A stretch of DNA of 64,000 nt from an uncultured Candidatus Saccharibacteria bacterium (GTDB lineage: Bacteria > Patescibacteriota > Saccharimonadia > Saccharimonadales > Saccharimonadaceae). Position 1 is the first letter of the stretch. Each line of letters begins with the position of its first letter. The notes beneath the pieces were generated by a model, which saw only the letters and a list, made by a program, of their open reading frames with translations, ran no database searches and was not told where the DNA came from. The stretch covers positions 143,473 to 207,472 of the forward strand of contig CAZMZB010000001.1 of assembly GCA_964570845.1 (NCBI GenBank), read 5' to 3'. The position numbers were made by a program, and so were the translations under genes. Positions 6,383 to 60,234 of the stretch are shown piece after piece.

Positions 6383-7334
6383 GGTGCTCTTTTTCTCCTG
6401 ACTCATCTGATTTAGCTTTGACGGTGCGGCCAAGCAATATCTTTACGATATCTTGCATGCTCACAATCCCTACTGTCTCCTTATGTTCATTAACTACTAT
6501 AAACAGATGTGAACGGTGGTGCAAGAAATCTGCCAATACATCTTCAACTGGTTGCTGTTCACTAATTTTATGAATATGCGCGTTCATCACCGTCTTGACC
6601 ATGTGTGATTGCTTGTCCTTTAAGGAAACAATATCCTTAATATCAAGAATACCGACAATATTATCCGGACTGCCGTCAAACACCGGGAAATAGTTATGAC
6701 CAGTTCTATGCAGCTGGTCTAGTACAAGCGGTCCAAGCATTTCATTTTTACCGATGGAATTAATTTTCTCTTTTGAGGTCATAATATCCTTAGCGGTAAG
6801 TGAGGAGAAATGAGTAGTGGCTATCAAAGCTTCTTTTTCTTTTATATCTAAAAAGTGAGCGTGGCTAATAGCATGCTGCAACTCCTCTTTTGAGTGCAAA
6901 CTAGTAATGAATTCATGCTTTTTCGCGCCAAAGACTCGAAAAATCTTTGCATGTTTTTCAATGAATGTCAGGATAGTCGACTCATATTTCTCATATAGCC
7001 TCTGAGCCGGTTTGTGAATAAAGTTTGAAGAAGCAAGCAAGTCATACGTTAGTGCTACGAGGAGCGATATGATGATCCCAAAAAACCACCCCAAAGCTGT
7101 CATTGATAAAACCGTAATCAATACGAGCAGTGCTGATATTTTCACATTTTGCAGTGCCTCAAGCATATCAAGCAACTTTTCCCTGCGCAGTTTTTGAATT
7201 GCCTCGCCATTGCCGACTCCAGCTCGTCGTTTGAGTTCATAATGGCTGAGATGACTGCGAACAGGAAGAATCGCTGTCACAAACAACAGGGCAACAAAAA
7301 AGAGCACATCAACTGTTATTAAAAATATATTCAT
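6375..7334 (-). CDS. CBS-pair membrane protein (CNNM/CorC-like)
   Basis: 319 aa; N-terminal TM helices, then two CBS-like repeats (AKDIMTSKEKINSIG... and VEDVLADFLHHRSHLFIVVNEHKETVGIVSMQDIV). Confidence 0.75.
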   Translation of the reverse strand: MNIFLITVDVLFFVALLFVTAILPVRSHLSHYELKRRAGVGNGEAIQKLRREKLLDMLEALQNVKISALLVLITVLSMTALGWFFGIIISLLVALTYDLLASSNFIHKPAQRLYEKYESTILTFIEKHAKIFRVFGAKKHEFITSLHSKEELQHAISHAHFLDIKEKEALIATTHFSSLTAKDIMTSKEKINSIGKNEMLGPLVLDQLHRTGHNYFPVFDGSPDNIVGILDIKDIVSLKDKQSHMVKTVMNAHIHKISEQQPVEDVLADFLHHRSHLFIVVNEHKETVGIVSMQDIVKILLGRTVKAKSDESGEKEHHE

Positions 7335-15769: not shown

Positions 15770-15823
15770 AAACACCCCTATCATAACAAAAGAACCCCAT
15801 AAAGAGGTTCTAAGTTTCTAATA

Positions 15824-15900
15824 TGGAGGGCCAGGAGGGACTCGAACCCTCGACACCCTGCTTAAGAGGCAGGTGCTCTAACCAGCTGAGCTACTGGCCC
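15824..15900 (-). tRNA. tRNA-Lys (anticodon CUU)
   Basis: 77 nt; acceptor GGGCCAG/CUGGCCC, anticodon arm CCUGC-CUCUUAA-GCAGG, T arm GAGGG-UUCGAGU-CCCUC, encoded CCA. Confidence 0.95.
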
Positions 15901-49972: not shown

Positions 49973-50034
49973 ACAGTCAGCCCCTTTTTTATACTTAGTT
50001 TTAGTTACCCTTCATTATAACAATTAATATTCTC

Positions 50035-51204
50035 TTAAGCATGTACGACAACACCCCTTCCGCGCTTCCCTTGATACTTTCCATCCTCATGTACAGCATC
50101 GTATCTATGCCCCCAAAAAGTCGGATCAAACGGTGTATACAGCTCATGTCCACCCTTGATAATGCCGTCACTGTGTATACCTGAGCGATGCCGATTAATA
50201 TCCCGACCAACGATAGGCGACTGACGACCAACCTCAAGACCTGCATAGTTCATTACTTTATTTGCTACTTCAACAGAAAGGCCAGGGTTAAATTCCCAAT
50301 ATATTGGCACCTCCATATCCGGACTGAATTTAAATAAGCCTGCCACCACTGGAAATACGTCAGCATTGCCAGCACGCTCACCAAGCCCGCAAATGGTTGT
50401 CTCACATTGTATGCGAATCGTTTTATTATGCCGACGTGCATATTCCGCTGCAGCATAAATCAGCATATTCGTATTAGCAACTGCCTGATTAAGATCGTTG
50501 TGATTATGGGCTGAAATAGTCGCTTCTGGATTTATCTGTGTAACCCAATTAATAACTCTGCTGTAGAATTGAAACATCCACTGCGGATCACGCTGCCCTA
50601 CAGTATCTGGCACATTTACTACATCTGCACCTTCTGCTAGTGCTTCTTTTATCACCAGTTCTAAATAATCTGTATTTGTAGTAGATGCCGCTTCTGCAGA
50701 AAATTCAACGGTTGCAGTTTGATGATCGGCGGATAATTTCTTAGCAAATCGTACCGCTTCTTTACCCATAGTCAAAATATTTTCAGGGGTTTTATCAGGA
50801 AATCGCCAACGCATATGCTCAGAATCCGTTGGAATAAATGTATGAATACGCGGCCTCCTTGCTTTATGTACGGCATCCCAAGTAATTTCAATGTCTTCTA
50901 ACGCAGCTCGTGCAAGTCCGGCAACTACAGGGCTGCGTTTTATATTTTCTACAATTCTTCCATTACGCCATTCAGTAACTTCATATTCAATTTGACCGAC
51001 TGTCCCAGCAACATCCCGCACCTCCTCTGCATCACTCAGGGTAGCTGGAAAGCCTGCCTCAATTACCCCAATTCCAAGTCGCGCAATATGGTGGGCAATC
51101 TCAGCTTTTTTGCCATCTGAAAATTGATTGCTCTCTGGTAATGATTGTGCACCATCTCTTTCAGTTGTATCAAAAACAGTTACTTCAACCAACGGTTCAC
51201 TCAT
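50035..51204 (-). CDS. DRE-TIM (HMGL-like) 2-isopropylmalate/homocitrate/citramalate synthase-family enzyme, catalytic domain only
   Basis: FDTTERDGAQS and SAHNHNDLNQAVANT (HxH metal motif). About 390 aa, so no LeuA-type C-terminal regulatory domain. ATG at 51204 follows GAGGAG. Confidence 0.85.
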   Translation of the reverse strand: MSEPLVEVTVFDTTERDGAQSLPESNQFSDGKKAEIAHHIARLGIGVIEAGFPATLSDAEEVRDVAGTVGQIEYEVTEWRNGRIVENIKRSPVVAGLARAALEDIEITWDAVHKARRPRIHTFIPTDSEHMRWRFPDKTPENILTMGKEAVRFAKKLSADHQTATVEFSAEAASTTNTDYLELVIKEALAEGADVVNVPDTVGQRDPQWMFQFYSRVINWVTQINPEATISAHNHNDLNQAVANTNMLIYAAAEYARRHNKTIRIQCETTICGLGERAGNADVFPVVAGLFKFSPDMEVPIYWEFNPGLSVEVANKVMNYAGLEVGRQSPIVGRDINRHRSGIHSDGIIKGGHELYTPFDPTFWGHRYDAVHEDGKYQGKRGRGVVVHA

Positions 51205-51224
51205 ATATATTCTCCTCAAAAATT

Positions 51225-51345
51225 ACATATTAAAATCAGGCTTCGTTGAAGCCTGATTTAATTCGATCCTGGCTGTGCGGAAAACGCGTTTAGCGCTCAG
51301 GCTCCAACCATGTGAAGCACAGCCGAGAAAGGCTGAGGAGAAGTC
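51225..51345 (-). promoter_or_regulatory. 5' leader with terminator/antiterminator architecture (unclassified attenuator or riboswitch candidate)
   Basis: Terminator AAAUCAGGCUUC-AACG-GAAGCCUGAUUU plus U-rich tail ends about 25 nt before the ATG. Upstream GGAGCCUGA can pair with the terminator 5' arm. An 8-bp helix GGCUGUGC/GCACAGCC and a competing CAGCC/GGCUG helix are also present. Confidence 0.5.
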
Positions 51346-51426
51346 CTAAACTATGTTTCCGATCTAATATCATATATGTCTCATTATAGCTTATAGTAAC
51401 TATTCCACAATATTATAGTGAAATAA

Positions 51427-51939
51427 TTACCAAGGACGATATTCTGTTTCTGTGCCAGTTATGATTTCTTGGCTACCGTAGGTAAAAGCATGTCTATTCC
51501 AAAAGGACACACTGTCGCTAGTAGCATTAGTCGATTGCGGGAATGGCTCATCATTCTCTTCATCAAAAACTCCGATCCACGCACTCGATAAAAGGTAGTC
51601 ATTATTTGTCTGGCGAACTAGATGCATTGCCACAGTAGAGCAAGCATCCCCTTTGCGGTTCTTCGCAAAAGGTACAAGACCATCATCTTCCCTATTTTTC
51701 CTAACTCCGTACACTAATCTGTCATTTTCATTCGTTTCAACAACATCACAGACACCAATTGTGCGACCCATATCCACATGAGTTTTTATCTCGTCACCTT
51801 CTAAACTCATTCGAGAAATGGCTTCTATGAGAAGCCTCTTTAATTGAGGAGTGTCATCGATATGAGTAGCAGCATGCGAATCCACGGGGTCATAGACGAC
51901 TCGTATTTCATTCTTGGATTTTGCAAGTAGCTCATTCAT
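51427..51939 (-). CDS. Hypothetical protein
   Basis: 170 aa soluble ORF, no motif I can name. Lies between the leader above and the accessory island. Confidence 0.6.
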   Translation of the reverse strand: MNELLAKSKNEIRVVYDPVDSHAATHIDDTPQLKRLLIEAISRMSLEGDEIKTHVDMGRTIGVCDVVETNENDRLVYGVRKNREDDGLVPFAKNRKGDACSTVAMHLVRQTNNDYLLSSAWIGVFDEENDEPFPQSTNATSDSVSFWNRHAFTYGSQEIITGTETEYRPW

Positions 51940-51950
51940 TATTTAATGAT

Positions 51951-51982
51951 AACAAAAAGAGCCGTTGTCTGCTCTTTTTGTT
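51951..51982. terminator. Bidirectional hairpin (A/T-flanked 12-bp stem)
   Basis: AACAAAAAGAGC - 8 nt - GCTCTTTTTGTT read directly. Confidence 0.55.
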
Positions 51983-52177
51983 ATACTTGCAAAAATTGCG
52001 ATTGTGGAGGTCCAGCAAGGAAAGAGTTTATATATTTTTATTGAGGAACTGATGAGGCTGAGAGAGCTACTGGATACTCAATATCAACAGCACAGATTGG
52101 AGAAACACTAGAAGGATAGTTTACTCCCTGTAGTATTTATAGTGCCTAGGAGGCTTATTCTAGAAACTAGCCATTAG

Positions 52178-52435: not shown

Positions 52436-53428
52436 TTATCCGAGTTCAAGTGTAGCATTCATACCTATAGGTTTAAATTCAACTACCCTATCTAATGGGG
52501 CAGGGTCCAAAGCTGGGTTTAAATACGACGATAACTGTAGTGCGACTGATCGAATTGCAGGCACTGCGACAGCATTACCAAACTGCTTATACGCTTGGTT
52601 ATCGCTGACTACAATCTTGAATGATTCTGGGAATCCCTGCAGGCGTGCTGCTTCTCGCGGAGTAAGTTTTCGAGGATTTTTACCTTTCTGCTCAATTAAG
52701 ATTTCCGAACCATCCTTATAGTAGCGGGCAGACATTGTACTAGTGTAGGGTGAATCTGCATTAAAGAGTGAGTACCCAAAACCATTCCCCTTAGCTTTAT
52801 GTTGCTCTTTTCTTCGTTGAGCTCCAGCCCAAAGTCGATCAGATATCGTATATTTATCATCGACGTTATCCTCGAGGATATCACCGACTTTAACTGGACT
52901 CATCGGAGGGTCTGCGAAGTCAAAGTCAATATCATCTCGTAATGCCACTATAAAAATCCTCTGTCTATTTTGAGGTACCCCAAAATCTTTAGCGTTATGA
53001 ACTTTATAGTGCACTGTATAACCTAGCTCTTCTCTTAAAACATTCAGTATAGTTTTAAAAGTATTACCTTTATCATGACCGACTAAGCCTTTGACATTTT
53101 CAAGAAACAAAACTTTAGGCCTATGTATTTCTGCTATTTTGGCAATATTAAAAAAGAGGTTTCCTCGCTCGTCTTCAAATCCCTTCTTTAGCCCAGCATG
53201 TGAAAATGGCTGGCATGGAAATCCTGCAAGTAATACATCAAAACTAGGGATGTTCTCGGGTTCAATCTTCGTAATATCACCGTGAGGCATTTCTCCAAAA
53301 TTTTCTGCATACGTTTGTTTAGCAAACTTATCCCATTCTGACGTAAAGACACATTTTCCGCCAATCTCTTCAAACGGAATTCTAATTCCCCCGATACCTG
53401 CAAATAAGTCTATGAACTTAAATGACAT
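52436..53428 (-). CDS. DNA (cytosine-5)-methyltransferase
   Basis: Motif I DLFAGIGG, IV GFPCQPFS, VI ENVKGL, VIII QNRQRIFIV, X GNAVAVP. ATG at 53428 follows GGAGGGGAG. Confidence 0.9.
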   Translation of the reverse strand: MSFKFIDLFAGIGGIRIPFEEIGGKCVFTSEWDKFAKQTYAENFGEMPHGDITKIEPENIPSFDVLLAGFPCQPFSHAGLKKGFEDERGNLFFNIAKIAEIHRPKVLFLENVKGLVGHDKGNTFKTILNVLREELGYTVHYKVHNAKDFGVPQNRQRIFIVALRDDIDFDFADPPMSPVKVGDILEDNVDDKYTISDRLWAGAQRRKEQHKAKGNGFGYSLFNADSPYTSTMSARYYKDGSEILIEQKGKNPRKLTPREAARLQGFPESFKIVVSDNQAYKQFGNAVAVPAIRSVALQLSSYLNPALDPAPLDRVVEFKPIGMNATLELG

Positions 53429-53509
53429 ACTCCCCTCCATTTTCGTTTTTATTAATCATAACCATTATAACACTATTGCCCCGGGGGTAAATAATATTAT
53501 CTAGTATAC

Positions 53510-54298
53510 TTAGTAATATCTTGCTGTAACCAGATTATCCCAGAAAGAATTATTCGCTCTCCATTGTGAATAATTTCTCCCATTCGTTTGATACATGCCA
53601 GAGTCAAAGAAGACATCTCCAGCTCGTACTGATTCAATCCATTTATCAAACGTTATTGGATCACCAAAGGCAATCGATCTATAAATGCCACCTGCATCCT
53701 TCTCGCACTTGAACCAACCCTTATCATTAAACTTTGACTCTACTCTTTTTTTCAAGGTTTTTGCATCCCATCGCGCTAGTGTCAATCCTTCTTCCTGCAA
53801 TTCCGAAGGTACAATTCGAGGCTTATTAGGTCTCTTATCTTTAGAGTATGAGTAGAGGGCTTCAATATTATTATCTTCGTCCACTATAAGCTTTTGACCA
53901 AACTGATTCCATTTTCCAATCTGCGGAACTGGTTCACCAGACCATGAAAACCTTCCGTTCTTCTTTGCATTTGGCTTACCGAATACCTGCATAAACTCAT
54001 CGCGCGTAATAGAGTAGTTATTGTCTTTAAAAATGTAGTAGTTAGCTGACCAATCCCCAAATGTAGTCTTCGATGTAGTTCCATTCTTCATTTCATATCC
54101 AAAAATATCAGGTGCATTACTCGCATTAGGAGAAACGCCCATTGCAGCCTCTAACCAATGGCCATCTTTTCCAGAATGCTTTACATTTGCTAACGCACTA
54201 TCAGCCTTCTTCCCCAAAACCTTATCCCTAAAAAGTTCAACGATAGCCCTTCTATCTTCAGGTATTGCTACAATGGGCTGCGTATTATTGTCATCCAT
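53510..54298 (-). CDS. Type II restriction endonuclease, MutH/MvaI/BcnI-like PD-(D/E)XK
   Basis: HSGKDGHWLEAAMGV...APDIFGYEMK matches the MutH/Sau3AI/MvaI-BcnI style D...ExK core. Adjacent to and co-oriented with the C5 methyltransferase. Specificity not inferable. Confidence 0.65.
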   Translation of the reverse strand: MDDNNTQPIVAIPEDRRAIVELFRDKVLGKKADSALANVKHSGKDGHWLEAAMGVSPNASNAPDIFGYEMKNGTTSKTTFGDWSANYYIFKDNNYSITRDEFMQVFGKPNAKKNGRFSWSGEPVPQIGKWNQFGQKLIVDEDNNIEALYSYSKDKRPNKPRIVPSELQEEGLTLARWDAKTLKKRVESKFNDKGWFKCEKDAGGIYRSIAFGDPITFDKWIESVRAGDVFFDSGMYQTNGRNYSQWRANNSFWDNLVTARYY

Positions 54299-54530
54299 AT
54301 ATGTGAATATTATTTCATAATCACAGTAAGTTTGGAAGTACAAACAACCAATAGATGCTCCTTTATCATCAGCTAATCCTTGGCTAAATAAAAAAGCTTA
54401 AATCTCCGCTACACAAAACCTTGATAAACTGGAGTGTAATATATTTTTACTTATGATTGTTATAGAATTATAGATAGCAGAGATGGAGTGGGCCAGTTTT
54501 GTTTACAATAATTAAGAGATAGGCTACTAA

Positions 54531-56411
54531 ATGAAAATCGTTGGCGCAATAATTGAAAACTTTAGAAGTATAGAGAGTCTTACAATAGACTTAACTCCAG
54601 AGGGCGATTGTAGCGCCAGAGTTTTAACCGGAATTAATGAGTCTGGCAAAAGTAATATACTTAAAGCCCTTGCTCTTCTATCTAGCGAGAATAAACTCAC
54701 CTATTCTAAAGATGTAAACAAAAAAGCAAAGAGTGAAAAAAAAGACATAGAAGTCAGATATGAGCTTGACTCAAGTGCGGCATCCATCCTACTAGACCAT
54801 CTTGAATCAAAAGGAGTTGCTAAAGAGATAATCGATAACATCGATATCAACTATATTGAACGAGTTGTTTCATTTGACTCTTCGTCAGCACGCAATGACT
54901 ATTTTCTCATATACCTAGAAGATGCCCCTGACCTACCTGATTATTCACACTCTGAAACTAAGGGGTTCATTAAGACTGATGATACTTCATCGGAAGAGTC
55001 GGAGCCTAGTGCTTTAACTCCAGCAACACCTCAACTTGAAAAAGATAAAGCTCTTGAGGAAAAGAAGGATTGGGAAGAGGTTTTAGAAGATGTGTATGCC
55101 CACGATGCTTTAGAGGCGAGTATACCAAGAGTTATATTTTGGTCATACAAAGATAAGTATCTTATTAATAAGGAGATTAATCTAACAAATTTTTCAGCTA
55201 ATCCTGCAACCGTATCTAAGCCACTTCATAATGTATTCAATCTCGCAAAATACACTGACGCTCAAATACCAGCAGTAATTAATGATGCACTTGAGGATGG
55301 CTCCCAAATGGGAGAGCTTGCAGATAAATTAGAGACAACCGTAACAGAATATCTCGAGGATGTCTGGCCAGAGCATCGAGTTAGCATCAAGGTGCTCACT
55401 GCAAACCCTACAATATCGTTTCATGTGGTAGAAAAAGATGTTCCTGCTGGAGGTAGGTATGAGGTAGCTGAACGAAGTGACGGATTTAAGCATTTCTTTG
55501 CAATCTTACTTAACTTAGCTGCAGAGAATTCTACCTCTCAGCTAAAAGACTGTTTAGTGCTCCTTGACGAGCCTGAAGTGCATTTACACCCATCAGGCGC
55601 TAAGTACTTGCGAGATCAGCTTCTAAAGATAGCTGGGCTTAACACTCTCGTTTATAGTACCCATTCTATATTCATGATTGACAGATCTTGTCTCGATAGA
55701 CACTATAAGGTGCATAAAGAAGATGAGACCACCCAAATACTTAAGATTGATAGCTCAAACCCATTCAAAGAAGAGTTAGTATACGAGGCACTTGGTACGA
55801 GTGTTCTAGACCTTATAAGCGAACATAACGTTCTTTTTGAAGGGTTAACAGATAAAAAGCTGTTTGAAGCATTTACTCATAAGTATCGTTCTGAAATTAA
55901 ACCCCTTGATATCACGACAATGAGCGTTGATGGCGAGACTCACTTTGATAAGTATTGTAAGTTTTTTAACAAAAAGAATATTAAAGGCTATATTATAGCT
56001 GACTCTGACAAGGACGGCGTAAGTGCACAAAAGAGAATATTAGCTAATAATTCACCTGAGTATAACGAGCGAAATACTTTTACCATAAATGATATTTTTA
56101 ACACCAAAAAGAAATCATGCCTCGAAGACTTAATTCCAAGCGCTGTTCTTGAAGCATGCATAAATGATTATTCTGGCATTACTATCGTACTTGAGGAATC
56201 AAAAACTTTTGCAGAACAAATTGCCGAATACAATAGTAAGAATGCTAAAAAAATTGATATTAATGGGCTGAAGATGTTTATCTGCGATTTTGTGTGTGAT
56301 GATATCTCTAAACGCACAATGACTAAAGAAAAAACTAAGCAAAAATACCCAGAATATCATGAGTTCTTAGTAAATCTTCATCAGAAGCTTAAAACTGCAA
56401 ACACAGCTTAG
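54531..56411 (+). CDS. OLD-family ATP-dependent nuclease (ABC-type ATPase + TOPRIM)
   Basis: N-terminal IENFRSIESL...GINESGKSNILKAL, Walker B LLDEPEVHLHP, C-terminal TOPRIM (VLFEGLTDKKL ... IIADSDKDG). No helicase partner adjacent. Confidence 0.85.
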   Translation: MKIVGAIIENFRSIESLTIDLTPEGDCSARVLTGINESGKSNILKALALLSSENKLTYSKDVNKKAKSEKKDIEVRYELDSSAASILLDHLESKGVAKEIIDNIDINYIERVVSFDSSSARNDYFLIYLEDAPDLPDYSHSETKGFIKTDDTSSEESEPSALTPATPQLEKDKALEEKKDWEEVLEDVYAHDALEASIPRVIFWSYKDKYLINKEINLTNFSANPATVSKPLHNVFNLAKYTDAQIPAVINDALEDGSQMGELADKLETTVTEYLEDVWPEHRVSIKVLTANPTISFHVVEKDVPAGGRYEVAERSDGFKHFFAILLNLAAENSTSQLKDCLVLLDEPEVHLHPSGAKYLRDQLLKIAGLNTLVYSTHSIFMIDRSCLDRHYKVHKEDETTQILKIDSSNPFKEELVYEALGTSVLDLISEHNVLFEGLTDKKLFEAFTHKYRSEIKPLDITTMSVDGETHFDKYCKFFNKKNIKGYIIADSDKDGVSAQKRILANNSPEYNERNTFTINDIFNTKKKSCLEDLIPSAVLEACINDYSGITIVLEESKTFAEQIAEYNSKNAKKIDINGLKMFICDFVCDDISKRTMTKEKTKQKYPEYHEFLVNLHQKLKTANTA

Positions 56412-56803: not shown

Positions 56804-57292
56804 TTATTTCTGCTCCTCTACAGTGATTACATAGTCTCTAACTGATGATGAGTTGATAAATAGGTAGTAATTGCCTGCTGGCTTTTGCATAATCTTCTCG
56901 TCGCTCTGAGTACCGATTGTCGTGATGTCTTGAACGGCAATGTTCTGCTCTCCCTGAGCATTGCGGGTTGTTGTCCAGCCTTCTGGCAATAGGTAAATAA
57001 AAGCTGTTCCGCTATCTGAAACTGTGTTTACTGTGTATTTCACACGGATGTTACCGCCGCTGAGCGCAAAGACTTCTCCGCTTTTTTCTTTGTTATCTCC
57101 AGTGAGTTCGGATACCTTCACCCACTTTTTAGGTTCTGCTACTTCTTTAGCTTTCTCTTCTCCACTATTTGCTGTTTCTTCGGTTGGTGTTTCAGAACCT
57201 ATGACATTGCCGATGAATGCTAGTGCTAAAACGATAATGACCCATATCCACCACTTCTTGTACCATGCTTTTTTACTATTGTGTTTATCCAT
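56804..57292 (-). CDS. Bitopic membrane protein with extracytoplasmic beta-rich domain
   Basis: ATG at 57292 follows GGAGGG. KKAWYKKWWIWVIIVLALAFIGNVIG anchor, then a roughly 110-aa domain (VFALSGGNIRVKYTVNTVSDSGTAFIYLLPEGW...YYLFINSS). Confidence 0.65.
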   Translation of the reverse strand: MDKHNSKKAWYKKWWIWVIIVLALAFIGNVIGSETPTEETANSGEEKAKEVAEPKKWVKVSELTGDNKEKSGEVFALSGGNIRVKYTVNTVSDSGTAFIYLLPEGWTTTRNAQGEQNIAVQDITTIGTQSDEKIMQKPAGNYYLFINSSSVRDYVITVEEQK

Positions 57293-57370
57293 TTTGGAGC
57301 CCTCCTTAGACTCGTTTGATTTATTTATACGGGTCTCCAAAATTAAAAGAGGACGGCCCGCAATCAGGTC

Positions 57371-57552: not shown

Positions 57553-58236
57553 ATGACATCTAGATACCAAAGAAAACAGGAATTGCTTAACCTTAGAGCC
57601 CAGAAAATGCGTGACGATGCGAATATTGAAGATAGATTAAATTTTCAACGCCCGACTGACTCTACTCTGTACAAATTTCTAGATACTTTTCTTGAAAACT
57701 ATAGCTGGCGTGAAGATATTTTTAGCGATAGTATAAATTTGTCAGTTTTTGAAAGTAACGATACAAGCGATTCCTATAAAATTACCGAGGAAAGTCAGAA
57801 TCTCTACGATACACTACGCTGGCTTAGTAGCAATAAGTACCTTTTCCTTGCTAATAACCATGACGGAACAGTGACCTTAAATAATGTTAACGATGAAGAG
57901 CTCTATGAGCTAATGGCTGGGCTAAAGCCCCACATCAGTCCCGCCATTGTCATATATAATCCAACCACTAAAGAAGTCTGGTTTAATGGTCGAAAACACA
58001 AGCTACAACGAGGAAAGAATTTAAAAATATTTCACCTGTTAGCTACAAATCAAAACGAACGATTATCGAAAGAGGCGGTTTGGCGATCAATAGGCTTTCG
58101 TAAAACGAAAAAACGAGATACATCAGACTTTAGCAAACTAGTTGCTAATGTCCGCACCTCTGTGGATGCAAGTTTAGAAGAGATTCAACTTGCTGAAACA
58201 TTGACACTTCACGCTGATGTAAAAATTATAGATTAG
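57553..58236 (+). CDS. Protein with C-terminal OmpR/PhoB-type winged-helix DNA-binding domain
   Basis: 227 aa. The C-terminal part VWFNGRKHKLQRGKNLKIFHLLATNQNERLSKEAVWRSIG resembles trans_reg_C. No receiver domain. The N-terminal 130 aa are unassigned. Confidence 0.65.
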   Translation: MTSRYQRKQELLNLRAQKMRDDANIEDRLNFQRPTDSTLYKFLDTFLENYSWREDIFSDSINLSVFESNDTSDSYKITEESQNLYDTLRWLSSNKYLFLANNHDGTVTLNNVNDEELYELMAGLKPHISPAIVIYNPTTKEVWFNGRKHKLQRGKNLKIFHLLATNQNERLSKEAVWRSIGFRKTKKRDTSDFSKLVANVRTSVDASLEEIQLAETLTLHADVKIID

Positions 58237-58345: not shown

Positions 58346-58501
58346 ATGTTCGCGAAAGAAGAGCAAGAAAAAATAATAAATAGTGAGTATGAAAGGGCTT
58401 TCACTGAGCTTGCTAGTTTTCTTTTTGAGCAATACCGAGAACAAAAAGAAGTTCAAGAAGCAATGAATGATATAGAGCAGGACGAGTCTTGTCAAAGTTA
58501 A
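58346..58501 (+). CDS. Possible 51-aa acidic protein upstream of the recombinase
   Basis: Hand-found ORF MFAKEEQEKIINSEYERAFTELASFLFEQYREQKEVQEAMNDIEQDESCQS. The palindrome ACTTCT-AAAATA-AGAAGT abuts the ATG. Below the track cutoff. Confidence 0.3.
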   Translation: MFAKEEQEKIINSEYERAFTELASFLFEQYREQKEVQEAMNDIEQDESCQS

Positions 58502-58548: not shown

Positions 58549-60234
58549 ATGAATAAAAAAGTAAAAGCAATCGCCCTTTGTCGGGTGTCAACAATGAAGC
58601 AAAAGGAAGACGGTAATCTTACCCCACAAAAAAAGAACGTAGAGATGGCCGCAGACGTACTAGATGCAGATCTTGTAAAGATTTGGGAGCTGGTAGTCTC
58701 CAGCCGTAAAGGCAAAAATATGAACCGCAAAGACCTGCGAGAAATGCATGATTACTGCAAGCGTTACAGGCCAGTTAAATATCTCATTGTTGATGAGGTA
58801 GACCGCTTCATGCGCTCTATTGATGAATATTTTTGGTGGAAGATGGAATTCAAACTCATAGGCGTTAGGCTCGTACATGCAACTCGACCCGACATTAACC
58901 CTGATGATGACAGAGCTGTATTTGACGAGTTGATTGATGTTTACCGAGCAGAACAAAGCAATAATGAACGTATCAAGAAAACACCTGAAAAGCAAAAGGC
59001 TCGACTTTACGCAGGCTACTATCCGAGCAACCCTCATACTGGTTATAAAAAATCGGAAATACCCGGCTTACACATTCCAGATGAACCAAATTGGTCGGCA
59101 ATGCGTACTTCATTCAGGGCAATGGCTGCTGGCGAATATAGCGTTGAAGAAGGACTCAGGCAGGCAACAGGCAGAGGCTTAAGGACAAAAAATTATGGTC
59201 CAAAAGCTATAGGCGGCAAAGAGATAGATATGTATCGTTGGAAAGAGCTGATGATAGACCCATATTATTGCGGCATCATGAAGTTCGCTGATTGGGATTT
59301 AGGCGAACAGCCTATCAAGGGAATTCATAAGCCAATGATTACCGTAGAAGAACATAAGATTCTTGTACACCTAGTAAAAAATAAGGGTAAACGGTTTACG
59401 GTTAAGAGAAATAACCCAGACTATCCATTTGCCAACCAAGCCGAATGCGCTAGATGCACCCTATCAGAATATAAGCACCCTCGGTTAACGGGTGCAACAC
59501 AGAATAATGGCGCTGCAAAGGGCTATAAACAATATAAACGATATAGATGCAGGGCCTGTAATCTAGAAGTAAGACAAGAAGTCTTCCACCAAGAAATAAG
59601 CGAGGAGCTATCACAGCTCCTCCTTTCATATGAACAGAAAGATAAGCTAAGACAACATGCTCGTAAGATATGGTCGCTACATGAGAAAACTCGTATAGAG
59701 CAAGCTCACATAGAATCTAATAAGTTGGCTATTTTAAAAGAACGCAAGAAAAAAATACTAGATTCATTGATCGAGGCTGAAGATGACCTTGTGAAAGACT
59801 TAAAGGAGAGGCTGGGAGAGTTGCGCAACGATATTGCAGAGGCTGAGAAAAATACTGCTGAAGCGCAAGACTTTGAGAAAGACTTTCATGAGTTCATCGA
59901 CTTTGTATTTGATTTTATGGATAACTTACAGAGTAAATGGTGGAAATTAGATAAGCAGACGATGGGAATATATAAACAAATGCTATTTCCTGCTGGAATT
60001 CAGCTATTACCAAATAAAAAAGTTTATATACCCAAAATTAGCCCTATTTACCTCTATAAAAACAAAAAACAGCCCCCAAAAAAGGCTGATTCTTCTAGAC
60101 TGGAGGGGCCACTGGGACTCGAACCCAGGACACCCTGCTTAAAAGGCAGGTGCTCTAACCAGCTGAGCTATGGCCCCGTAAAGCGTTACTTCGCTCAAAA
60201 AACAGTAACATTTTTACCACACCTCTGTCAATGA
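58549..60234 (+). CDS. Large serine recombinase (integrase); last roughly 55 codons are read-through across tRNA-Lys
   Basis: Catalytic N-domain AIALCRVSTMKQ and LIVDEVDRFMRS, a recombinase domain, a zinc ribbon (CARC...CRAC) and a long coiled coil. The first in-frame stop is at 60232-60234, beyond the tRNA gene. Confidence 0.9.
   Translation: MNKKVKAIALCRVSTMKQKEDGNLTPQKKNVEMAADVLDADLVKIWELVVSSRKGKNMNRKDLREMHDYCKRYRPVKYLIVDEVDRFMRSIDEYFWWKMEFKLIGVRLVHATRPDINPDDDRAVFDELIDVYRAEQSNNERIKKTPEKQKARLYAGYYPSNPHTGYKKSEIPGLHIPDEPNWSAMRTSFRAMAAGEYSVEEGLRQATGRGLRTKNYGPKAIGGKEIDMYRWKELMIDPYYCGIMKFADWDLGEQPIKGIHKPMITVEEHKILVHLVKNKGKRFTVKRNNPDYPFANQAECARCTLSEYKHPRLTGATQNNGAAKGYKQYKRYRCRACNLEVRQEVFHQEISEELSQLLLSYEQKDKLRQHARKIWSLHEKTRIEQAHIESNKLAILKERKKKILDSLIEAEDDLVKDLKERLGELRNDIAEAEKNTAEAQDFEKDFHEFIDFVFDFMDNLQSKWWKLDKQTMGIYKQMLFPAGIQLLPNKKVYIPKISPIYLYKNKKQPPKKADSSRLEGPLGLEPRTPCLKGRCSNQLSYGPVKRYFAQKTVTFLPHLCQ
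60070..60088 (-). terminator. Intrinsic terminator of tRNA-Lys(UUU), embedded in the recombinase ORF
   Basis: Minus strand CAGCC-UUUUUUGGG-GGCUG followed by UUUUUUG, 12 nt after the tRNA CCA end. Confidence 0.6.
60101..60177 (-). tRNA. tRNA-Lys (anticodon UUU)
   Basis: 77 nt; acceptor GGGGCCA/UGGCCCC, anticodon arm CCUGC-CUUUUAA-GCAGG, T arm CUGGG-UUCGAGU-CCCAG, encoded CCA. Confidence 0.95.

Follow-up and report, generated by a model that had tools for sequence, protein, structure and literature searches.

A large serine integrase gene that probably spans its own attachment site, in a genomic island at the 3' end of tRNA-Lys in Candidatus Saccharibacteria

We analysed a stretch of 64,000 nucleotides (here called the window) from the genome of an uncultured Candidatus Saccharibacteria bacterium (GenBank assembly GCA_964570845.1, 774 kb in 69 contigs; contig CAZMZB010000001.1, positions 143,473 to 207,472 of the forward strand), in which the open reading frame (ORF) of a serine recombinase, the integrase Int, runs into a tRNA-Lys(UUU) gene. 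Our results make it very probable that the integrase gene, int, spans attP, the attachment site of its own element, and that this enzyme inserted the element at the last six base pairs of tRNA-Lys(UUU). Using the left-end motif, the CCA end of the tRNA and the point at which homology to a genome of the same genus (G001) starts, we identify the segment 52005-60106, from the attR core to the attL core, as an integrative island of ~8.1 kb which carries defence genes and sits at the extreme end of the tRNA gene. The 3' end of int would have been displaced to the far end of this island upon integration and a piece of host DNA acquired in its stead.

In its integrated (attL) form the integrase ORF occupies 58549-60234 on the plus strand and encodes 561 residues (C-terminus ...KNKKQPPKKADSSRLEGPLGLEPRTPCLKGRCSNQLSYGPVKRYFAQKTVTFLPHLCQ), with its stop codon at 60232-60234. 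The first-pass annotation of this DNA had observed that the ORF has no stop inside the element and reads antisense through a terminator and tRNA-Lys, and the ORF listing, ARAGORN and Rfam agree on this point: the tRNA gene, which is the intact integration target, lies on the minus strand at 60101-60177 (anticodon ttt in ARAGORN; Rfam RF00005, 72.9 bits), and the int frame crosses both the terminator hairpin and the entire tRNA. Codons 1-518 (58549-60102, plus strand) make up the element-encoded body, with the catalytic domain, the recombinase domain and a zinc ribbon with an embedded coiled coil. Codons 520-561 and the stop (60106-60234, plus strand) form a tail read from antisense tRNA-Lys and its 5' flank. 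That this tail is host DNA, as the annotation had supposed, is borne out by G001, in which tRNA-Lys(UUU) has a different terminator of its own and no integrase, i.e. the site is empty: BLASTN homology between G001 and the window has its left limit precisely at 60101, where the tRNA has its CCA end. The anatomy further implies that int mRNA would overlap the tRNA in antisense.

In the window Int, Pfam recognizes the N-terminal resolvase-type catalytic domain alone (PF00239, residues 7-137, E 1.6e-11), with matches to PF07508 and PF13408 obtained for some homologues, and a search of PDB by sequence returned the TP901-1 catalytic domain as the sole match; the full architecture came from a fold search. 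For this we used an AlphaFold2 model of the relative P0030, built from 29 input sequences (mean pLDDT, the predicted local distance difference test score, 82.5). It displays a confident integrase body with long helices at 342-480 between beta strands, a disordered linker at 506-524 and a single helix at 526-558 (pLDDT 65-84), and Foldseek aligned it with the SPbeta, Bxb1 and phiC31 integrase chains over 490-540 columns (E 6e-14 to 4e-10). Because of these matches we regard the window enzyme, by way of the model of its relative, as a bona fide large serine integrase. An alignment of 35 homologues (A1) shows that: 1) Ser14 in the CRVS motif is nearly invariant; 2) a DRFMRS block is invariant; and 3) Cys300, 303, 334 and 337, corresponding to the zinc ribbon of large serine integrases, are likewise invariant. 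The last recognizable integrase motif before the tRNA is KVYIPKISPIY.

The stretch disordered in the model (506-524) is the same one that encodes the terminator and the left arm of attP. The element-supplied terminator of the tRNA lies on the minus strand at 60055-60088, within int codons ~503-514, and consists of a hairpin at 60070-60088 with the stem CAGCC (60070-74)/GGCTG (60084-88), followed by a U-run on the tRNA strand. The hairpin is present in both the minimum-free-energy and the centroid folds, the energy of the 71-nt segment around it being indistinguishable from that of shuffled sequences (z -0.43). Relatives have a much stronger hairpin, AGCCCCCGAAGGGGCT, at the same position, and this position is kept in the attP left arm of all related elements. 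Another hairpin, immediately left of attR at 51951-51982, has a comparable counterpart on the attR host side in most relatives and is probably the original host terminator of tRNA-Lys, now displaced.

The sole identity between the two island junctions is the hexamer TGGAGG, found at 60101-60106 as the attL core and, according to junction alignments, at 52005-52010 as the attR core. On the tRNA strand the attL core comprises CCA, the discriminator base and the last two bases of the acceptor stem; in int it coincides with codons 518-520. We accordingly predict that the crossover is within TGGAGG, which places it inside the 3' end of int as the first-pass annotation had proposed. From 52005 the window carries a conserved left-end motif, TGGAGG followed by TCCAGCAAGGAAAGAGTTTATATATTTTTATTGAGGAACTGATG..., that recurs in 12 related tRNA-Lys elements; in every one of these, TGGAGG is the sole sequence common to attL and attR. 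All 18 tRNA-Lys(UUU) sites examined in relatives start with TGGAGG and continue into unrelated host terminators; no int-tail sequence adjoins them, and they were judged empty by eye from their left flanks. Joining 60106 to 52011 in the window gives the predicted circle joint ...CTAGACTGGAGGTCCAGC..., reading ...CTAGAC-TGGAGG-TCCAGC... around the core, with C-TGGA-GG-TCCA-G forming a dyad around GG. This symmetry points to GG as the likely centre of exchange, and a 6-bp identity block with such a dyad is in keeping with the short att sites of serine integrases, the cleavage position itself being unreadable from sequence.

The left end of the island encodes a candidate for the missing end of the integrase. 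At 52007-52111 on the plus strand we find a displaced int tail exon of 34 codons, EVQQGKSLYIFIEELMRLRELLDTQYQQHRLEKH plus a TAG stop, which is recognized by junction translation, conservation, frame and coding signature. Once the island ends are joined in silico it is in frame with int, and the translation across the junction, ...ADSSRLEVQQGKSLYIFIEELMRLRELLDTQYQQHRLEKH up to the stop, yields a protein of 552 residues, the last 33 of which are encoded at 52010-52108 with the stop at 52109-52111 (tail EVQQGKSLYIFIEELMRLRELL...KH). In the circular form the right end supplies codons 1-518 and the left end the last 33 codons, with codon 519 between them in the core. Upon integration the tail exon ends up 8.1 kb from the rest of int, and 33 element-encoded residues are exchanged for 42 host-encoded ones; the catalytic and DNA-binding domains all remain intact in the attL form, residues 520-552 alone being displaced. 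The expectation of the first-pass annotation that the tail is drawn from the other element end after excision is supported by this left-end piece and by the joined genes described below.

Several lines of evidence show that the tail exon is conserved as protein. Relatives have a tail in the same frame, e.g. ...EVDQGTNLYTLVDELIRWRELLDNRFKQHQLNNRRxKELYSL, and in 11 of 13 tails the frame runs uninterrupted from the core as far as a stop codon, the position of which is conserved. They share an amphipathic helix, L-Y-x3-E-E-L-x-R-W-R-x-L-L, which follows the flexible linker in the model of the relative. Pairwise differences between tails are distributed over the three codon positions as 787/670/1243, the synonymous fraction is 0.28 in frame vs 0.10 and 0.12 in the shifted frames, and an arginine that never varies is specified by six different codons. 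A profile hidden Markov model of the tail gives matches upstream of int and on the int strand in most of 80 related loci, with a single weak match on the other strand. Further, 25 distant loci, with tRNA-Gly, Arg, Glu, Val, Ala or Lys(CUU) as target, repeat the 6 nt at the very 3' end of that tRNA within the tail ORF, in the codon phase of int.

Body and tail also occur joined in public data. They form one ORF in nine database proteins (P0030, P0036, P0068, P0070, P0074, P0094, P0103, P0110 and P0118), and the 8006-bp contig of P0074 lacks a tRNA gene and is read as a circular element because of its 30-nt terminal overlap. At locus L110 int and tail are contiguous, and the contig of L044 starts with 82 nt of the int 3' end joined via TGGAGG to the left end of the element. 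A search of 1.84 billion representative sequences recovered 87 clusters with E values of 1e-30 or below; among the top 150, the alignment extends through the tail in about 10. Public data contain joined (attP) and empty (attB) as well as occupied sites, and mobility of the family is implied by these sequences. Nearly all of the 80 related loci belong to Candidatus Saccharibacteria or Saccharimonadales, with a few in other Patescibacteria; in a sample across the class, homologues at E 1e-20 or better were found in 35 of 301 genomes (~12%) and 34 of 160 genera, a patchy distribution of the kind that a mobile element would give.

The integrated copies differ from the joined ones in how their Int ends. 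More than 100 Int homologues (38-77% identity) were recovered, and nearly all end in ...EGPxGLEPxTPCLKGRCSNQLSYGP and then diverge at random lengths; in a subgroup another frame of the same tRNA is read, with a stop in the D-arm (...GGPxGTRTxDTLLKRQVL). At 58 of the 80 loci the homologue adjoins an antisense tRNA (Lys, Glu, Val, Arg, Gly or Ala, by clade). As to whether homologues share the C-terminal ~55 residues as element sequence, the point on which the first-pass annotation had made its reading depend, the host-encoded tail proved to be shared only where the tRNA is the same, other tails occur at other tRNAs, and all diverge past the end of the tRNA. Of 59 loci, the window counted among them, 58 have no stop in the int frame over the last 75 nt and the core; the corresponding figures for the other two frames are 15 and 5. 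The int stop never precedes the tRNA (0/59), falling within it in 28 loci and past it in 31. The open frame and the uniform lack of an earlier stop argue that the missing stop is selected and no accident. The attL-form tails have their stops scattered from +6 to +1286 nt.

Certain observations weigh against this reading of the window. The left boundary lacks synteny support, as G001 has two unrelated genes there and the right boundary alone is confirmed. The dyad is weaker in some relatives, which have TCGA, TCTA or TGCA for TCCA, and the exact dinucleotide is given by symmetry only; the tail is out of phase or frameshifted in four loci; and tRNA fragments of 17-28 nt are found in some distant relatives at 100-800 nt upstream of the in-phase core. 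In the window itself, the tail reads RLR, with leucine, where 17 of 18 other tails have RWR, with tryptophan, and it stops ~8 codons before those of the closest relatives, so the copy may be decaying while integrated.

These features of the window tail, its early end and the loss of the conserved tryptophan, are what would be expected if the architecture were real for the family but this copy were a fixed fossil lacking a functional full-length Int, with the isoform switch unused here. We consider that somewhat unlikely, while giving it more credence than any other alternative. A 50-nt footprint of a lost sister element at tRNA-Lys(CUU), described below, shows that in-place decay has happened in this genome. 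However, the 518-codon body is intact, without frameshift and 77% identical to its nearest relative, both cores are intact, and a conserved 51-residue ORF upstream of int is still present. The early-ending RLR tail fits relaxed selection, the exon being silent in the integrated state, or a copy heading for fixation.

A second alternative holds that the read-through is a neutral by-product: functional Int would end at ~505-518, the stop would be missing because the terminator and the attP arm occupy the int 3' end, and the left-end piece would be a separate small gene or a DNA signal. The domains are indeed complete by ~505, the next 20 residues are modelled as disordered, the attL-form tails with their scattered stops are plainly unselected, and an internal ATG follows GAGGA in several tails, that of the window included. 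This ATG is, however, not conserved, being ATA (isoleucine) in half of the elements, and protein-level conservation extends to the residues between the core and the ATG. Phase with int is maintained by the tail in clades with different tRNAs and cores, 58 of 59 loci have an open int frame vs 5-15 for the control frames, and gene callers give one continuous ORF wherever the ends are joined. We hold a neutral origin to be quite improbable on these grounds. Finally, a crossover further inside the tRNA (at the T-loop or anticodon loop, as known from tyrosine-integrase islands), with the island bringing a replacement tRNA 3' half and a larger element-encoded int tail, is brought to mind by the 17-28-nt direct repeats of some distant relatives that run from the CCA end into the T-arm, but is exceedingly improbable because the window and 11 close relatives repeat nothing of the tRNA past TGGAGG at the left end, the observed attP forms leave the tRNA sequence right after TGGAGG, and the in-phase core by the tail exon is separate from the longer repeats in the distant loci.

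Taking an int gene that spans attP as the most probable reading, we propose the following cycle. The circular form would contain a single Int ORF of 552 residues across attP, ending in the conserved C-terminal helix. Integration would separate the tail exon from int by the whole length of the island and fuse int to the antisense tRNA, giving 561 residues, while the tRNA would keep its sequence and gain a new terminator encoded within the linker codons of int. The linker stretch would in this way play a triple role: 1) coding for Int; 2) as the left arm of attP; and 3) as the antisense of the tRNA terminator. The tail appears to be translated from the excised or a tandem form alone, yet its substitution pattern indicates purifying selection; being made in the joined form alone, it would have to be of use to Int in this form, the simplest role being in attP x attB integration or in control of that reaction. 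As the attL-form tails are unselected and of any length, the activity of the chromosomal Int would conversely have to tolerate or exploit the loss of the tail. The tail-less prophage Int, perhaps together with the conserved 51-residue protein, would be the form available for excision.

Current explanations of serine integrase directionality invoke coiled-coil interactions together with a separate directionality factor, which is needed for excision. We tentatively raise the possibility, which we regard as doubtful at present, that the tail swap is a built-in state sensor helping to set the direction of recombination. The tethered RWR helix in the Int of the circle might license or bias attP x attB integration, e.g. 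via the nearby coiled-coil motif; integration would remove the helix, and the tail-less Int might be excision-competent, alone or with the 51-residue protein. If this were true, the topology of the int gene itself would hold part of the directionality control in a whole Patescibacteria-wide clade of serine integrases specialised on tRNA 3' ends. For studies of serine integrase directionality, a conserved C-terminal helix present in the excised state alone offers a new, directly testable handle.

Other candidates for the attachment sites of the window element were considered and rejected. A long direct repeat of the tRNA as att core is not seen: there is none of 14 nt or more in 30000-64000 and none by short-word BLAST across 20 kb upstream; where relatives have upstream tRNA repeats, these always start exactly at the CCA end. 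The pair 52151-52167/60083-60100 lies ~40 nt past the tail-exon stop and has no counterpart in the related junctions examined, the conserved junction being the one at 52005. A 44-kb element reaching as far as tRNA-Lys(CUU) at 15824 was also rejected, the 50-nt similarity there being a local footprint beside a host gene start with no int remnant beyond it.

The left end of the island has some further features in and around the tail exon. An in-frame ATG after GAGGAA within the exon (52052-52111) could give a 19-residue peptide, MRLRELLDTQYQQHRLEKH, in the integrated state, but is probably no conserved feature because about half of the relatives have ATA there. The DNA word AGTTTATATA occurs both at 60021-60030, ~80 nt before the core in int codons KVYIP, and at 52025-52034, ~20 nt after the core in the tail exon (codons SLYIF or KVYTQ). 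The same is seen in relatives, the word being AGTTTACACA in other clades. This repeated word might be either a candidate binding site flanking attP or an echo, in the tail, of the last zinc-ribbon strand. A DNA box, ...TATATTCCCTGTAG / ...ATTCCTAGTA, extends over the tail-exon stop in the window (52109-52135) and in the left ends of L029-L037, L053 and L110, and is conserved beyond coding need.

The same genome contains a second member of the family at C1:312444-320300. Its int (C1:312524-314041, minus strand) is 40% identical to that of the window and adjoins tRNA-Arg(GCG), and its tail exon (...WYTTDSKVYTQLKQEGRRWREILEPMYREYKLQIRGRD before the stop) is found at a distance of 7.8 kb and keeps phase across the core TGGTACACC. 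Additionally, the 50 nt at 15774-15823, which adjoin tRNA-Lys(CUU) at 15824-15900 on its downstream side and together with this tRNA are 79% identical to the int linker and terminator region 60050-60100, end in ...TTCTAATA directly before TGGAGGG. A host gene start directly follows this stretch, and no int remnant is found. It looks like the footprint of a lost sister element, the int-tail terminator of which would now serve tRNA-Lys(CUU).

Fragments of target tRNAs are seen beside several related elements. In L035 a decayed tRNA-Lys 3' fragment, TGGAGGGCCGGGAGGGACT, at 1939-1976 lies 38 nt left of the true attR core and suggests repeated use of the same site. L051, a distant member of the family, has three copies of the tRNA-Arg 3' end at 6875, 7057 and 7239, spaced by 182 nt, upstream of and at attR, the first two being identical 28-nt stretches with the same following sequence. 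In L045, L050, L070, L087 and L101, single tRNA fragments of 17-22 nt precede the in-phase core by 100-800 nt. The fragments of the distant clades may either belong to the element or have been left by earlier insertions.

Upstream of int the island encodes a C5 cytosine methyltransferase (52436-53440, minus strand), a LlaMI/MvaI-type restriction endonuclease (53510-54343, minus strand) and an OLD-family AAA+TOPRIM nuclease (54531-56411, plus strand), all assigned by Pfam, followed by a 178-residue membrane protein with a weak match to superinfection-exclusion PHROGs (56804-57340, minus strand) and a 227-residue protein of unknown function (57553-58236, plus strand). Just upstream of int is the 51-residue ORF (58346-58501, plus strand), which has no match to a Pfam or PHROG family; tblastn detects it in the same position in 14 related elements, and it is a candidate accessory or directionality factor. 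The cargo varies between related elements. A free circular relative of 8 kb (L109) carries other cargo (DUF6996/DUF6997/DUF7226 proteins and a DUF7380 protein) and keeps a core module of a ~212-residue protein, a small ORF and int.

On the host side, the genes left of the island are those for an HMGL-like enzyme, yebC and ruvC, and the next gene to the left shared with G001 is yebC. Between yebC and tRNA-Lys the gene content is wholly different in the two genomes (49973-52004 in the window vs G001:C8:2180-5279): the window has the HMGL-like enzyme and a 170-residue protein matching a phage PHROG of unknown function, and G001 a 484-residue membrane protein and a 473-residue protein. Judged by this comparison, the downstream side of tRNA-Lys appears to be a turnover hotspot even apart from the island. 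A sub-threshold Rfam match to the plastid ycf2 5' untranslated region at 60103-60177 on the plus strand (35 bits vs a gathering threshold of 65.7) is almost certainly a mirror image of the tRNA and no real feature.

Beyond the window, these integrases are of practical interest in that the CCA end of a tRNA, which they recognize, is a small and universally conserved target and in that they provide natural attP/attB pairs from organisms with scarce genetic tools. For annotation the consequence is that gene callers give these ORFs spurious tRNA-antisense tails and miss the true C-terminus.

With the large serine integrases phiC31, Bxb1, A118/LI, SPbeta and TP901-1 the family shares domain architecture and fold, and its 6-bp identity block is consistent with their short sites of minimal attP/attB identity. 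Known members usually act at protein-coding or intergenic sites, whereas the target here is a tRNA 3' end. tRNA genes have been taken as targets of tyrosine integrases only (PMC4383910); the serine integrases of the present family act at the extreme 3' end of no fewer than six tRNA species. The Islander/TIGER islands are due to tyrosine integrases and leave a displaced tRNA fragment of tens of bases at the far end (PMC4383910). The window element resembles these islands in its tRNA 3'-end site, in the tRNA gene that is kept intact and in its accessory cargo, but falls outside their definition, with a repeat of 6 bp only and a serine integrase. In the integration-dependent immunity of mycobacteriophages, described for BPs, Brujita and M. 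abscessus prophages, attP lies in the repressor gene and the integrases are again tyrosine recombinases (PMC8092301, PMC6109161). There the piece exchanged is an ssrA-like degradation tag at the C-terminus of the repressor, which is lost on integration; here it is int itself that is split, and the ends of the Int tails vary (...EKH, ...LYSL, ...NNLL, ...KTRS) and are not ssrA-like.

Splitting of int by integration is best known from the SSV-type 'suicidal' integrases, in which att lies inside the int ORF and integration partitions the gene between the element ends (PMC8371274, PMC7253208). These are tyrosine recombinases stated to be exclusive to archaea (PMC8371274), and the split has been reported to give a possibly inactive enzyme. 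The first-pass annotation had likened the window element to this type. The likeness holds for the topology, with attP within the gene, here that of a serine recombinase, and the ORF extending across it; it does not go further, as the displaced part amounts to 33 residues and includes no catalytic part, and all recognizable domains, and with them the essential part of the enzyme, stay in one piece. In the literature searched, the coverage of which is limited, we found no paper on this Int family nor on a serine integrase gene spanning attP, and within that literature an int gene spanning attP has so far been published for tyrosine integrases only.

The myxophage Mx8 integrates at a tRNA locus and offers a closer precedent than SSV. 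Its attP is situated in the coding sequence of int, and the recombinant gene that results from integration has a new 3' end and is reported to give an enzyme of altered activity (PMC6070905); Mx8 and SSV have been named together as having integrases that extend across attP (PMC4383910). As with the IntP/IntX pair of Mx8, attP in the window element falls within the 3' part of int, and a new 3' end is acquired without destroying the enzyme. The systems differ in that the Mx8 enzyme, like that of SSV, is a tyrosine recombinase, and the window enzyme a large serine integrase with a 6-bp identity block; moreover, the piece displaced here is a short conserved helix, and the design is common to a whole family at several tRNA species. 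By its sequence and the modelled fold of its relative, this is a family of large serine integrases, topologically like Mx8 IntP and acting at tRNA 3' ends, in which a gene spanning attP is the general design across the Patescibacteria members.

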